Counted from the first letter of the stretch, positions 2,877 to 43,740 are shown. The stretch: 64,000 bases of DNA from Myxococcota bacterium (GCA_965223705.1 OZ245015.1:192001-256000), one strand, 5' to 3'. The notes: a model not told the origin generated them from the sequence alone. Numbers and translations: made by a program.

Positions 2877-3629
2877 ATGGCCGAACTGTTCACCACGGAA
2901 AACCTCGTCGCGTTGTTGACGCTCGCGAGCCTCGAGATCGTGCTCGGGATCGACAACATCGTCTTCATCTCGATTCTCTGCGCGAAGCTTCCGCCTCAAC
3001 TCCAGGCGCGGGGACGCCAGGTGGGTCTCGCCTTGGCGATGGCGCTCCGGATCCTGTTGCTGCTTTCGATCAGCTGGGTGATGGGACTGACGGAGCCGCT
3101 GTTTTCGCTGCTCGGTCACGCGGTGAGCGGGCGCGATCTCATTCTGCTCGTCGGCGGGTTGTTTCTTCTGGGCAAAGCCACGTGGGAGATCCACGACAAG
3201 CTCGAGGGTGCCGATGGCCATGGAGACGGTAGCGGCGCCAAGAAGTACGCGAGTTTTGGCGCCGTCCTCCTCCAGATTGCGGCGCTCGACTTGGTCTTCT
3301 CCTTGGATTCCGTCATCACCGCGGTCGGGATGGCGGATCGCATCGAGATCATGATCGCTGCGGTCGTGATCGCCGTCGTCGTGATGATGATTTTCGCGGG
3401 CACGATCAGTCGCTTCGTCGAGCGACATCCGACGCTCAAGATGCTCGCATTAGCGTTCTTGATTTTGATCGGCGCGATGCTCGTCCTCGAGGGCTTCGGG
3501 AAGCACGTCGAGAAGGGTTACATCTACTTTGCGATGGCGTTCTCACTCACCGTCGAGCTTCTCAACATGCGCTTCCGCAAGGTGCGCAAGCCCGTGGAAC
3601 TCAAACAGAGCTACGTAACCGAGGCGTAG
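2877..3629 (+). CDS. TerC/Alx-family membrane protein
   Basis: LEIVLGIDN and DLVFSLDSVITAVG motifs; ATG 2877 preceded by GGAGG. Confidence 0.92.
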   Translation: MAELFTTENLVALLTLASLEIVLGIDNIVFISILCAKLPPQLQARGRQVGLALAMALRILLLLSISWVMGLTEPLFSLLGHAVSGRDLILLVGGLFLLGKATWEIHDKLEGADGHGDGSGAKKYASFGAVLLQIAALDLVFSLDSVITAVGMADRIEIMIAAVVIAVVVMMIFAGTISRFVERHPTLKMLALAFLILIGAMLVLEGFGKHVEKGYIYFAMAFSLTVELLNMRFRKVRKPVELKQSYVTEA

Positions 3630-3632
3630 CGC

Positions 3633-4283
3633 TCAGCGCGCGGCGAGGGGCCCCGGCCGGAGCTCCTCGCTCACCATGCCGCGTGCGGCCAAGGCTTCGA
3701 GCAGCGAGCGAAGCACCGCGGCGGGGTCTCGGTCGGCGTCGATCCGCTCGATGTACGGGCGGCTCAGCGCGGCGAACTCGCGCGCGACGGACCGCAAGCT
3801 GTCCGCCAGCTCGAAGGCATCGTTTTCGCCCCGGTGACTCACTCGTTTGAGACCGGCGCCCACGTCGAGTTCGAGAATCAGCGCGCAATCCGGTACTGGA
3901 AAGCGCGCTTCCTGCTCGGCGAGAATCTGCTCTCGGTCGAGGCCGCGCGCGCCCTGGTAGGCCGCGGTGGAGAGGAAGTAGCGATCCGTCACCACCCACC
4001 GACCGAGTTCCATGGCGGGTAGGACGACGGAATCGACGTGCTCGGCGCGATCTTTCACGAAGAGCTCGAGTTCTTCGTTCGCCGGAAGTCGCTCGCCCGC
4101 GGCCGCCGCCGCGCGAATACGCGAGCCGTACACACCGTCGGTGGGCTCCCGGGTCAGCACGTTGGCGATACCGTCCCGCTCGAGGGCCTCGGAAAGCAAA
4201 CGTGCTTGCGTCGACTTGCCCGCACCGTCGATGCCCTCGATTGCGATCAGCAGACCGCGTTGATGTGTAGCGCCGTCGTTCAC
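3633..4283 (-). CDS. tmk: Thymidylate kinase
   Basis: IAIEGIDGAGKST P-loop, TREP, DRY..S..AYQG. Confidence 0.95.
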   Translation of the reverse strand: MNDGATHQRGLLIAIEGIDGAGKSTQARLLSEALERDGIANVLTREPTDGVYGSRIRAAAAAGERLPANEELELFVKDRAEHVDSVVLPAMELGRWVVTDRYFLSTAAYQGARGLDREQILAEQEARFPVPDCALILELDVGAGLKRVSHRGENDAFELADSLRSVAREFAALSRPYIERIDADRDPAAVLRSLLEALAARGMVSEELRPGPLAAR

Positions 4284-4351
4284 CGTATATGGACCCTAGG
4301 CCACGCACCGCCTTCAAACGAGACCAAAGCAGCGCGCCACGCGAGAGAGCT

Positions 4352-4367
4352 GGGCATGTCATTTGCG
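4352..4367 (+). promoter_or_regulatory. Putative sigma54 -24/-12 promoter
   Basis: GGGCAT-GTCAT-TTGCG; GG (4353-54) and GC (4365-66) are 10 nt apart; one mismatch at the leading T. Confidence 0.5.
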
Positions 4368-4377
4368 TTGGGTGCAG

Positions 4378-4523
4378 TGCGATGCCGTTGGGCATCGCCC
4401 GTTTGCACCCCTCTACCGGGACCGGGGGTCGGCGGGTTTTGGAGGCGCCGGGTGAGGGCTTGGCGTGACGTGGGAAAACAACATGGGGTGAGGCCTGCGT
4501 CACTGCTCGCGCCCGGCGTCTCC
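4378..4523 (+). ncRNA. Candidate structured small RNA A
   Basis: 5' hairpin 4379-4398; long hairpin 4441-4523 with five G.U pairs valid only on the + strand, opposite to both flanking genes. Confidence 0.5.
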
Positions 4524-4555
4524 CGCAGCCGGGGCGATCGCCCCGGCTGTAGGAG
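4520..4555. terminator. Strong GC hairpin after atpE, possibly a bidirectional terminator
   Basis: CTCCCGCAGCCGGGGC-GATC-GCCCCGGCTGTAGGAG; no clear U tract. Confidence 0.45.
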
Positions 4556-4566
4556 TCGCGGCGGCC

Positions 4567-4896
4567 CTAGCCGGCGGCCGGAATGCGGAAGACGAGGAGG
4601 AGGCCCACGACGAGCCCGTAAATCGCGATCGACTCGATGAGCACCATGCCGAGAATGAAGTTGGTGAACATCGACCCTGCGGCGCCGGGATTGCGCGCAA
4701 TGCCCGCGGTGGTGTTACCGGCCGTGAGCCCTTGGCCAATACCGCAGCCGAGCGCGGCGAAACCGATCGCGATGCCAGCGCCCAGTGCGTAGCCCCAGCT
4801 GTCGCCACCGCCGGTCGCGCCCTGCGCGGCGGCCGCCATCGGCATGAGCAGCACGGCGAGGGTGTAGAGTGCAATTCGGTATGCCTTACGCATCAT
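4567..4896 (-). CDS. atpE: ATP synthase Fo subunit c
   Basis: GIGQG, ARNP loop, IESIAIY with the conserved Glu; N-terminal extension. Confidence 0.96.
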   Translation of the reverse strand: MMRKAYRIALYTLAVLLMPMAAAAQGATGGGDSWGYALGAGIAIGFAALGCGIGQGLTAGNTTAGIARNPGAAGSMFTNFILGMVLIESIAIYGLVVGLLLVFRIPAAG

Positions 4897-4908
4897 CAGT
4901 CTCCTTCA

Positions 4909-5628
4909 TTAGTGCGCTTCTTCGAGCGCCAATCCGATGTAAATCATCGTGAGTAGGGCGAACACGTAGGCCTGCAAGAACGAGACGAGCACGCCAAGCC
5001 CCATGAACGCGGCCGGCAGCACCGCCGGAACCAACATCAACCAAACGCCGACAACGGTGTGGTCGGCGAACATATTGGCGAGGAGCCGGATGCCCAGTGA
5101 GAGCACCCGCGCGCCGTGCGCCACGATTTCGAGAACCAAGAAAAGCGGGGCGAGCAGGCGCAAGTGATACGTCTTGTCGCCGACCTTCAGGTCGTAGAGG
5201 CTCGGCCCGAGAAAATGATTGAGGTAGCCCCAACCGTGCTTGCGAATGCCGACCCACTCCGAGACACCGAACGCGATGAGTGCCCAAGCGAACGTCGTGT
5301 TGCGGTCGCTCGTGGCGCCCCCGATCCCGGGGATCAGCCCGATCAAATTCGAGATCAATACGAAGACGAAAATCGTGCCGACGATCGGGAACCAACGACG
5401 CCACTCCGGTCCCATGTTCTGCTCAGCGAGATCCGAGAGGAAATCGACGATGAGCTCGAACACGTTTCGGACGCTCATCCCTTCGTCCGGAATGACTCCG
5501 CCGTTGTTGGCCGCAATACCGGCTCGCACACGCCAGCCGAAAAACGCCATGATGAGGAACGTGAAGAGAGCGGAACTAACCACCCACGGAATGCCCGTGT
5601 GATCTTCGATCGTTTCAAAGATGTTCAC
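4909..5628 (-). CDS. atpB: ATP synthase Fo subunit a
   Basis: SLGIRLLANM (essential Arg), LQAYVFALL; upstream of atpE. Confidence 0.96.
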   Translation of the reverse strand: MNIFETIEDHTGIPWVVSSALFTFLIMAFFGWRVRAGIAANNGGVIPDEGMSVRNVFELIVDFLSDLAEQNMGPEWRRWFPIVGTIFVFVLISNLIGLIPGIGGATSDRNTTFAWALIAFGVSEWVGIRKHGWGYLNHFLGPSLYDLKVGDKTYHLRLLAPLFLVLEIVAHGARVLSLGIRLLANMFADHTVVGVWLMLVPAVLPAAFMGLGVLVSFLQAYVFALLTMIYIGLALEEAH

Positions 5629-6116
5629 GCTTCGTCCTCATCTTCGATGTCGTTCTCCCGGGCAAACCAGGGGTTCCAGGCCTCCCATGCGGCTTCCTCT
5701 TCGTCGAGCGGGGCCGCTTCGACGACTTGCGGGCGTGCGAGCCAGGCGGAGAGCAACGTCGACGGGACGATGAGGGAGAGGCCGATCACCAACCCGACGG
5801 GATGCGCGCCGGCCCACAGGGAGCCCGCGATCGCCGCGAGCAGCAGAGAGAAGCGCAACCCGAAGCCCGCAGCGGCGATGGCCGAGCCGTTCCAGGCATT
5901 GTTGAACGTCGCCTCGCTGTTGCGGCGCAGCGACCGGAAATTCACCGCTTCGAGAAGCGCGCCCAATGCGAGACTCCCGGTAAAAGCCGGCGTCGCCAGG
6001 GCCCACGCTGTCGCGACGGCGCCACCCGCGATCGCCGCGTGCAAGCGCTGCACGGGACCCGCGTCGAGAACCACTGCGTCGGAACTCTGGGTGTTCGCCA
6101 ATCCGTCGTCTACCAA
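5625..6116 (-). CDS. atpI: ATP synthase protein I-like membrane protein (start uncertain)
   Basis: Four hydrophobic segments; position between atpZ-like gene and atpB. Confidence 0.7.
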   Translation of the reverse strand: MVDDGLANTQSSDAVVLDAGPVQRLHAAIAGGAVATAWALATPAFTGSLALGALLEAVNFRSLRRNSEATFNNAWNGSAIAAAGFGLRFSLLLAAIAGSLWAGAHPVGLVIGLSLIVPSTLLSAWLARPQVVEAAPLDEEEAAWEAWNPWFARENDIEDEDEA

Positions 6117-42277: not shown

Positions 42278-42293
42278 TGGCACGCCCTTTGCT
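42278..42293 (+). promoter_or_regulatory. sigma54 promoter of the porin-PII operon
   Basis: TGGCAC-GCCCT-TTGCT, exact consensus. Confidence 0.85.
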
Positions 42294-42390
42294 CTAGCCA
42301 CATGAGGCCCGCGAACAGGACGGAGGGGTTCGTCCCTTTTCCCGGTGCCGCGCTGCGCCCAGGTAGCGCGAAAGTCAAAGGAGGAAGCAG

Positions 42391-43740
42391 ATGCGAAGGA
42401 TCAGGGCTATCGCCGTTGCGGCGATCGCGCTCCTGCTCGCCCCCCAGGTTTCGGCTACGGAAGCCGACGTGGCGGCGGAGCTACAGGCCATGCGGGAGCG
42501 GATGAATCAGCTGGAGCAACGGCTGGAGGCGACGTCGGATGAGTTGGCCGACGCGAACGCGCGGGTCGAGGAGCAGCACCAACTCATCGAGCGATCGGGG
42601 TTGGCCGACGGTGAGGCGACGAGTTCGGGTCTCGCTTCTTTTCTCGAGAACGTCGAGATGGGCGGTTGGATCAGCGGTAGCTACGTCTACAACTTCGAAG
42701 GCCACGACGATGAGGTGCTCGGTGGGGCGAACAGCGGTCCCGGTGTGCTTCCGTTCAAGGGCGACTCCAACAGCTTCCAACTCGATCAGCTGTGGTTCGA
42801 GATCGAGAAGGGCGTCACCGAGGACAGCCGCGCCGGTTTCCGGGCAGACATCGTGTACGGCAAGACCGCCGGCCTGTTGAACGGTTGTTTCGCATGCGCC
42901 GACGGAACACTCGGCGACGAGATCGAACTCTACCAAGCGTACGTTCAGTATCTCGCTCCGATTTTCGGAGGCACGACCTTCAAGTTCGGTAAGTTCGGCA
43001 CCGTGATCGGCGCCGAGGTCGCGGGCGCGCGGGACAACTTCAATATCACGCGTGGCCATGTCTACAACTTGTTCGAGCCGATTACCCACGTCGGTATTTT
43101 GGCCTCGACCGACTTTGGAGGCGGTGGCTCGATCTCACTGGGTCTCGTCAACGAAACACGGTCTTTCCCGGGCGCAGACATTGACCTGAACAACAACAAG
43201 GCGGTCCTCTGGTCGCTCGGTTGGGGTTGGGACACCGTCGGAGTCTCGTTCGCCGGTGCGTACGGCGATGCGGACAGCGGCCAAGGCGCGTCGCTGCCCT
43301 CGAGCAACAAAGAGATGATCCTCGACTTCATCTTGTCGTGGGATCCGTCGGACAATTTCTCGGCCTATATCAACGCCGACTACATCGACAGCGAGAACAG
43401 CACCGACCGCACGTCGGAGTTCGACGGCTACGGGATTTCGGTGGCGGGGCGCTTGGCGCTTACCGATCGGCTGGGAATCGCGTTGCGCGGCGAGTACGCG
43501 ACCCTCGAGTCGGATGCTCCGCAGGTCATGGGCGTTTCCTCCGAAGAGCTCACGCTCTACGGCATTACGGGAACCGTCGACTACGCGCTGACTTCCGACC
43601 TCATGGTCAAGGCGGAACTCCGCTACGACAGTTCCGATTCTTCGGACACGTTCTTCGAGAATGCGTTTATCGGAGAGGAAGGCCTCTTCACAGAGGACGA
43701 TCAGTTCATTGGGGCGGTGGAGGTGCTCTACACGTTCTAG
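42391..43740 (+). CDS. Outer-membrane beta-barrel porin (BBP2-like) with N-terminal coiled coil
   Basis: Signal peptide, QAYV..GKFGT.IGAE, KAELRYD, terminal YTF; GGAGG RBS. Confidence 0.85.
   Translation: MRRIRAIAVAAIALLLAPQVSATEADVAAELQAMRERMNQLEQRLEATSDELADANARVEEQHQLIERSGLADGEATSSGLASFLENVEMGGWISGSYVYNFEGHDDEVLGGANSGPGVLPFKGDSNSFQLDQLWFEIEKGVTEDSRAGFRADIVYGKTAGLLNGCFACADGTLGDEIELYQAYVQYLAPIFGGTTFKFGKFGTVIGAEVAGARDNFNITRGHVYNLFEPITHVGILASTDFGGGGSISLGLVNETRSFPGADIDLNNNKAVLWSLGWGWDTVGVSFAGAYGDADSGQGASLPSSNKEMILDFILSWDPSDNFSAYINADYIDSENSTDRTSEFDGYGISVAGRLALTDRLGIALRGEYATLESDAPQVMGVSSEELTLYGITGTVDYALTSDLMVKAELRYDSSDSSDTFFENAFIGEEGLFTEDDQFIGAVEVLYTF

Follow-up and report, generated by a model that had tools for sequence, protein, structure and literature searches.

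A candidate sigma-54-dependent, three-hairpin small RNA gene between tmk and atpE in the Myxococcota

Analysis of a 64,000-nucleotide stretch of DNA (the window) from a Myxococcota bacterium (GCA_965223705.1, OZ245015.1:192001-256000) identified a single-copy element between tmk and atpE, at 4351-4523 on the plus strand, which appears to be a sigma-54-gated gene for an RNA of about 150 nt with three hairpins; a trans-acting role of this RNA is likely. From comparison of the sequences we hold with high confidence that this is a real RNA gene driven by sigma-54. The RNA represents a well-defined family without counterpart in Rfam or in the papers searched, and it is of a kind already known, that of the sigma-54-dependent small RNAs.

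The original prediction had placed the element in a 283 bp gap between two minus-strand genes. This gap was found at 4284-4566, and both genes were confirmed by Pfam. The features of the locus are as follows.

3633-4283, minus strand: tmk (thymidylate kinase; PF02223, E 2.4e-38), divergent from the RNA gene
4283-4281, minus strand: GTG start codon of tmk
4278-4283, plus strand: candidate activator box GTTCAC, 74 nt before the GG of the promoter and overlapping the tmk start codon
4351-4367, plus strand: sigma-54-type promoter TGGGCATG-TCAT-TTGCG, with the -24 GG at 4353-4354 and the -12 GC at 4365-4366
4378, plus strand: predicted transcription start, placed by the usual sigma-54 geometry
4379-4398, plus strand: P1, 5'-terminal 8-bp hairpin, -14.9 kcal/mol
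4398-4436, plus strand: P2, two-tier hairpin with outer stem CCCGUU/GGCGGG and inner stem CCCCU/GGGGG
4417-4423, plus strand: CGGGACC in the loop of P2, invariant
4437-4440, plus strand: UUUU after P2, in this genome
4441-4523, plus strand: P3, 83-nt hairpin with a 19-bp lower stem, an internal loop and a 9-10-bp upper stem
4485-4492, plus strand: GGGGUGAG in the A-rich apical loop of P3, invariant
4520-4555 (core 4526-4549), both strands: GC-rich palindromic hairpin between P3 and the atpE stop codon
4567-4896, minus strand: atpE (ATP synthase c subunit; PF00137), convergent with the RNA gene
4909-5628, minus strand: atpB (PF00119)

Beyond atpE and atpB, the genes identified by Pfam in the window include those for TerC, UvrA, an aminotransferase and GyrA, and no activator gene was found near the RNA locus among the Pfam-identified neighbours. 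A simple scan revealed no sigma-70-type promoter in the gap 4284-4566 and no sigma-70-like promoter for tmk in 3500-5800, and the single terminator-like site that it returned lies outside the gap.

The elements that had been described within the gap could be recovered from the sequence. The GG-N10-GC element is GGGCATGTCATTTGCG at 4352-4367, with GG at 4353-4354 and GC at 4365-4366. The 8 bp hairpin at 4379-4398 reads GCGATGCC-GTTG-GGCATCGC and folds with -14.9 kcal/mol, and the 83 nt hairpin at 4441-4523 has stems of 14, 4 and 10 bp together with a loop that contains ...AAAACAACAUGGGGUGAGG, as described. All five wobbles of this hairpin are G-U on the plus strand, and the reverse complement has 0 G-U. 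The GC hairpin that closes the region at 4520-4555 is also present (-31.6 kcal/mol).

Promoters of sigma-54 are recognized by a GG and a GC exactly ten bases apart, within TGGCACG-N4-TTGCW. When 24 sequences were aligned with their upstream DNA, the consensus of the relatives was TGGCACG-N4-TTGCT, a textbook sigma-54 promoter, and the -24/-12 element proved to be conserved, with GGCA and TTGC invariant in 24/24 aligned relatives. GGCA-N7-TGC was kept in 73 of the 75 distinct homologues, and the remaining two, which read GGTACG-N4-TCGC, retained GG-N10-GC. The promoter typically lies 6 to 13 nt 5' of the first position of the covariance model. In the sister order (family f13, the only other order of the class sampled), GG-N10-GC was found just upstream on the RNA's strand in 24/24 loci. 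The predicted start at 4378, one base before P1, is set 12 nt past the C (4366) of the -12 GC, which we take to be the usual spacing. Sigma-54 itself is encoded by rpoN (PF04552, 205 bits, G000:C1:1926557-1927033).

Two matches to the strict pattern GGCAYG-N4-TTGC were counted in the 64-kb window, where 0.33 would be expected; at least two turned up in 6 of 100 shuffles. The other match, CTGGCACGCCCTTTGCT at 42278-42294 (+), is a second textbook sigma-54 promoter; it lies about 100 nt upstream of a gene for a 449-aa secreted beta-barrel porin at 42391-43740 (+; PF07642 BBP2, E 1.3e-55). Genome-wide, 63 matches to GGCAYR-N4-TTGC were found on both strands (G000:C1), which suggests a sizeable sigma-54 regulon.

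Upstream of the promoter, GTTCAC boxes are conserved in both orders as direct repeats in tandem, and they are candidates for the binding site of an activator (enhancer-binding protein). In the window's order, TTCAC boxes lie about 115 and 90 nt before the GG, at least one being present in 61/69 loci and at least two in 37/69, and the distal box overlaps the start codon of tmk, GTG AA(C/G). Sister-order loci have a TTCAC box 45-50 nt before the GG in 20 of 22 cases, and in 10 of the 22 a second box lies exactly 22 nt further upstream. The pattern is weak in the window genome, which has a single exact GTTCAC box (4278-4283), coinciding with the tmk start codon GTG AAC, along with a shorter spacer and a degenerate TTCAA at 4313-4317. 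In view of the overlap with a start codon and of the direct-repeat form, the assignment to an activator is tentative. A regulon sharing the boxes was looked for and not found: none of the 63 sigma-54-like genome sites has two of them upstream. Another semi-conserved word, AAGTGCGC (variants TAACTC and CAAGTC), was observed about 45-50 nt before the GG in main-order loci; its reverse complement, GCGCACTT, stands just before the GG in sister-order loci.

The fold consists of three separate hairpins, P1, P2 and P3, over 4378-4523. Folding of both strands confirmed the predicted hairpins, but the energy of the whole gap favoured neither strand. The gap folds better than shuffles on both (z -2.69 on the plus and z -3.04 on the minus strand), so the strand is not decided by energy alone. 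At the level of sequence comparison, it is conservation and covariation across relatives that decide that the structure is beyond chance. RNAalifold predicted 36 pairs from 24 sequences, 27 of them with compensatory change. The stem covariation that was looked for was found in 75 distinct sequences, whose alignment was fitted to the covariance model, which favours structure: 38 of the 40 pairs were changed on both sides, 94.5% of cells pair compared with 44-50% when the partners are slid by 1-3 columns, and 0 of 500 shuffles reached the observed values on any of five measures. The sister order alone gave 91.9% paired versus 32-46% slid. Compensatory change was found in 10/12 pairs of helices 1 and 2, which make up P2 (93-95% paired), and in 28/28 pairs of helices 3 and 4, which make up P3 (94-96% paired).

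P1 varies in sequence but is kept in structure. In 72/75 homologues, versus 49/75 shuffles, the corresponding 28 nt have a folding energy of -5 kcal/mol or lower, with a median of -10.5 versus -6.1 kcal/mol, and P1 is absent in a few homologues (L009, L013, L015). As for the loops, CGGGACC of P2 is at least 97% conserved over the 75 sequences; GGGGUGAG of P3 is invariant in 24/24, and over the 75 none of its columns falls below 97% conservation.

P3 folds with -51.9 kcal/mol on the plus strand compared with -33.2 kcal/mol for its reverse complement, and the RNA in the window folds with -84.0 kcal/mol on the plus versus -61.3 on the minus strand. G-U cells number 324 versus 56 A-C cells, and the model scores are 100-137 bits on the RNA's strand versus at most 36.5 bits on the opposite one. 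This excess of G-U, together with the low score of the opposite strand, indicates that the RNA is read from the plus strand of the window.

The GC hairpin at 4520-4555 is equally stable on the two strands (-31.6 and -31.2 kcal/mol) and is probably a two-way terminator that lies outside the conserved RNA. Downstream hairpins were not general in the relatives, in which the median minimum free energy was -17.6 versus -16.0 kcal/mol for shuffles, and a run of at least three T within 10 nt past P3 was found in only 13/75 homologues. A conserved extra terminator after P3 is therefore unsupported by either the hairpin energies or the T runs. The transcript would end after P3 or after the hairpin at 4526-4549. 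P2 followed by UUUU resembles an intrinsic terminator, and a short form of about 60 nt would be made if these U residues were used as one. The UUUU (4437-4440) is missing in the 23 aligned relatives.

Our analysis of gene order showed that, in the order to which the window belongs, 69 of 75 distinct loci have tmk upstream of the RNA and divergent from it, and 66 of 75 have atpE downstream and convergent, 4 to 1116 nt away. The sister order shows the arrangement atpB, atpE, promoter, RNA and tmk, all on one strand, in 22/22 loci extending far enough, and tmk follows the end of the RNA in sense after 5-180 nt. Promoter and RNA keep together through the inversion and thus move as one cassette, which was inverted in one lineage and still lies between atpE and tmk. 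The claim that the RNA is independent, and not a UTR of either neighbour, stands for this genome and its order, but not for the sister order, in which the RNA may also be a tmk leader. Location on the same strand as tmk, as in a tmk leader or riboswitch, was found in the sister order but not in the window or in 69/75 loci. In two sister-order loci (L210 and L206), a GTG within the invariant GGGGUGAGG shares the reading frame of tmk, with no stop codon in between; the GTG of a third (L207) is out of frame, and the in-frame GTG therefore looks coincidental. Throughout the class, atpB and atpE stand apart from the other ATP synthase genes, beside tmk, while the adjacency of atpBE and tmk was found in 0/9 tmk loci of other classes within the fetched flank.

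BLASTN of the gap matched 27 of 40 relatives. The matches almost always span query 125-239, which is 4408-4522 of the window, and the identity of the gap was 71-79% versus 43-59% for the adjacent tmk protein. Covariance model R1 detected the RNA in 143 of 151 class genomes, including 103 of the 104 of high quality, mostly with one match each. In a phylum-wide sample, R1 found it in 27/27 class genomes and 0/123 genomes outside the class, and R2, which was built only from the sister order, in 24/27 and 0/123, respectively. With filters off, the best score beside tmk in nine tmk loci of other classes was 14.5 bits. A GTDB-wide scan for CGGGACCGGGGG-N45-75-GGGGTGAG gave at least 119 stretches. 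Among the 80 whose DNA was examined, 28 were true homologues at 90 bits or more, labelled mostly as Myxococcota, Myxococcales or Deltaproteobacteria, with a few as Spirochaetales or Geobacter. The other 52 (Streptomyces, Nocardia and others) were rejected as chance matches in GC-rich DNA.

Losses were checked in three of the eight class genomes without an R1 match and in two same-genus genomes missed by BLASTN. In G004 and G016 the RNA has diverged (34 and 29 bits), and a promoter-like site is found where one would be expected. The RNA gave no match in G001, G002 and G036, where the atpE-tmk gap is only about 100-110 nt. These losses indicate that the RNA can be lost and is not indispensable. 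G001 and G002 (L296 and L295), which belong to the same genus, have genomes of 2.1-2.3 Mb, half the size, and have lost the cassette; G+C at their locus is about 50% versus 65-70% in the window genome.

The RNA had been said to belong to no recognized family, and a search of 3900-5000 against Rfam 15, with E up to 10, indeed returned no family at threshold. The best match, to sX5 (RF02224, a Xanthomonadaceae sRNA), scored 25.5 bits versus a gathering score of 50, and the others had E 0.28 or worse. P2 with its U4 tail (4393-4440), the terminator-like part of the RNA, aligns to the 49-position hairpin model of sX5 and gives this match, but the score is sub-threshold and the resemblance is a generic one, of a hairpin with U after it. 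The element is present as a single copy in the 4.56-Mb genome and is therefore not a REP-like repeat; a genome self-search of the gap returned the element itself and the self-complementary hairpin at 4516-4559. 6S RNA was rejected as an identity, RF00013 having no match in the genome (a model that detects 6S RNA in only 5/14 control genomes) and the fold being three separate hairpins in place of the 6S rod of about 180 nt with its large central bubble. A divergent SRP RNA was rejected as well: SRP RNA was found elsewhere in the genome at 65 bits, and the fold does not fit.

We consider it fairly probable that the main job of the RNA is in trans. Sigma-54 RNA polymerase is predicted to transcribe it once an enhancer-binding activator fires, and this activator would possibly bind the tandem GTTCAC boxes upstream. 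Transcription would begin near 4378. The two invariant G-rich loops are likely to be the working parts of the RNA, and CGGGACC and ACGGGGUGAG would pair with C-rich mRNA sites independently of Hfq. Base pairing is a tentative proposal for the mode of action, and we favour it over protein capture. Hfq (PF17209) was not found in the window genome, which is 95% complete. The inversion suggests that orientation to tmk and atpE is irrelevant to the keeping of the RNA, which argues for action in trans.

Searches were made for mRNA sites complementary to the loops. CTCACCCC, the complement of the P3 loop, is under-represented in the genome, with 134 sites versus about 325 expected from composition, and only 3 of the 134 lie near the starts of called ORFs, roughly as many as chance would place there. 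There are five places where the two loop complements share a strand and lie no more than 150 nt apart, the antisense of the RNA itself being one of them; we estimate that about five would be expected by chance. The tmk mRNA was rejected as a target in trans, because GGTCCC was found in 0/69 loci and CACCCC in 2/69 in the tmk 5' region, no more often than control motifs. In front of a lipoprotein cytochrome c gene at G000:C1:480112-480459 (-), 48 nt from the ATG, 11 nt are perfectly complementary to the P3 loop (leader 480459-480520, L255). This leader was also rejected, since only 1 of 28 orthologous leaders had even a partial match; a site that is not conserved in orthologues is probably due to chance.

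The same invariant loops can be read in another way, as a decoy whose G-rich words capture an RNA-binding protein, just as CsrB and RsmZ capture CsrA. The words would be UAACGGGAC in P2, AACGGGGUGAG and GCGGGAU in P3 and, often, YCGGGU in the internal loop of P3. Like CsrB and RsmZ, the RNA carries several similar G-rich words in hairpin loops; ACGGG-type words are repeated and invariant while the stems vary, a conserved mRNA target was not found in the tmk, ORF-start and cytochrome c tests, and CsrA is encoded in the window genome (83 bits). However, CsrA sites need a GGA core, and only two of the loop words have one. In the phylum sample, moreover, CsrA was matched in only 11 of the 27 RNA-bearing class genomes, several of those without a match being 94-99% complete, and a CsrA sponge was rejected on this phyletic pattern. 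We regard a protein-binding decoy as doubtful. Action in cis on the neighbours, which we judge quite unlikely, would have to take a different form in each order: in the sister order the element would be a sigma-54-driven 5' leader of tmk, whereas in the window's order tmk would be disturbed by transcription of the element or by an activator bound to the GTTCAC box on its start codon. A further form would be pairing of the RNA, as a perfect antisense, with a read-through transcript of atpE and tmk. It is consistent with such a role that throughout the class, whichever way it points, the cassette stays between atpE and tmk, that the atpBE-tmk adjacency is class-specific (0/9 loci of other classes), and that many sister-order loci leave no room for a separate promoter between RNA and tmk. 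The failure of the scan to find a sigma-70-like tmk promoter in 3500-5800, and the distal TTCAC box over the tmk start in the window's order, point the same way. Yet a leader is unworkable after inversion, and the inverted order keeps sequence and structure as well or better, at 100-137 bits. A fixed link to the ribosome-binding site is missing, since sister-order RNAs end anywhere between 5 and 180 nt from tmk, and the tmk 5' region holds no conserved complement to the invariant loops (GGTCCC 0/69, CACCCC 2/69). Against an antisense role, the G-U pairs speak for selection on the fold of the plus-strand RNA and not on an antisense duplex. A sigma-54-gated switch coupled to thymidylate kinase, through which a signal would set the supply of DNA precursors in both arrangements, is likewise an improbable reading of the cassette. 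Under that reading, the promoter and structured RNA of the sister order would form a leader of tmk, and in the window's order, where the cassette is flipped and the boxes lie on the tmk start, the activator would turn the RNA on and tmk off; the enhancer-binding protein would read an environmental signal, which the released RNA would carry in trans to other genes.

A minus-strand element (3' UTR of atpE, terminator or tmk leader) or a site acting at the DNA level, with a coincidental sigma-54 motif, is very improbable in our view. The minus strand of the gap does beat shuffles (z -3.04), and P3 lies 0-20 nt from the atpE stop codon in many relatives and could therefore terminate atpE. But the 324 G-U versus 56 A-C cells and the score of at most 36.5 bits on the opposite strand argue against this; the promoter motif was found in 75/75 homologues, always on the RNA's strand and also after inversion, and invariant loops would be senseless in a simple terminator. 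A small protein-coding gene hardly comes into consideration. Open frames do arise from the high GC content, and one homologue has an ORF of 39 codons, but we found no three-base periodicity (column entropy by codon phase 0.986, 0.971 and 0.980), the median longest closed ORF of the homologues is 8 codons, and substitutions are paired across the stems.

The preferred reading, that of a trans-acting RNA made from its own sigma-54 promoter, has parallels in other bacteria. Qrr of Vibrio, GlmY of enterobacteria, and CrcZ and NrsZ of Pseudomonas are stand-alone sigma-54-dependent RNA genes acting in trans, and sigma-54 small RNAs are not made until an enhancer-binding protein has relayed a signal. 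The tmk-atpE RNA is similar to them as a stand-alone RNA gene behind a -24/-12 promoter, its expression being predicted here. It differs in that its loops are G-rich and not C/U-rich, Hfq was not found in its genome, and no Rfam family resembles it in sequence or structure.

The nearest analogue is Pxr of Myxococcus xanthus and relatives. The available excerpts of the Pxr study (PMC5568312) describe an RNA of about 108 nt with a predicted sigma-54 promoter and three stem-loops, confined to one lineage, the suborder Cystobacterineae, whose gene has the activator gene nla19 on one side and an NADH dehydrogenase gene on the other. As far as those excerpts go, the two RNAs share a sigma-54-type promoter, three hairpins and restriction to a lineage, and both are from genomes labelled Myxococcota, but the tmk-atpE RNA is longer, with a third hairpin of 83 nt, and its neighbours and clade are different. 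No homology to Pxr was found by R1 or R2 in the 123 other genomes of the phylum or by Rfam, a comparison in which Pxr is represented by its description and the pxr carriers among the 123 are unconfirmed. Among the papers found by full-text search on sigma-54 small RNAs in myxobacteria or deltaproteobacteria, or beside thymidylate kinase, and judged mainly by their abstracts, there was none on the present RNA; they comprised only Pxr papers and unrelated work.

Two covariance models and an alignment, together with the promoter and the invariant loops, define the family cleanly and make it ready for an Rfam entry, for genome annotation and for experimental work. The inversion of the cassette between two orders provides a natural experiment that can separate effects in cis from those in trans. 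Nearly all searched genomes of a mostly uncultured class, with records labelled Myxococcota or Deltaproteobacteria, have kept the RNA. It would be the second lineage-specific sigma-54-dependent small RNA in the phylum, after Pxr, and it points to signal-gated riboregulation being common where sigma-54 activators abound.
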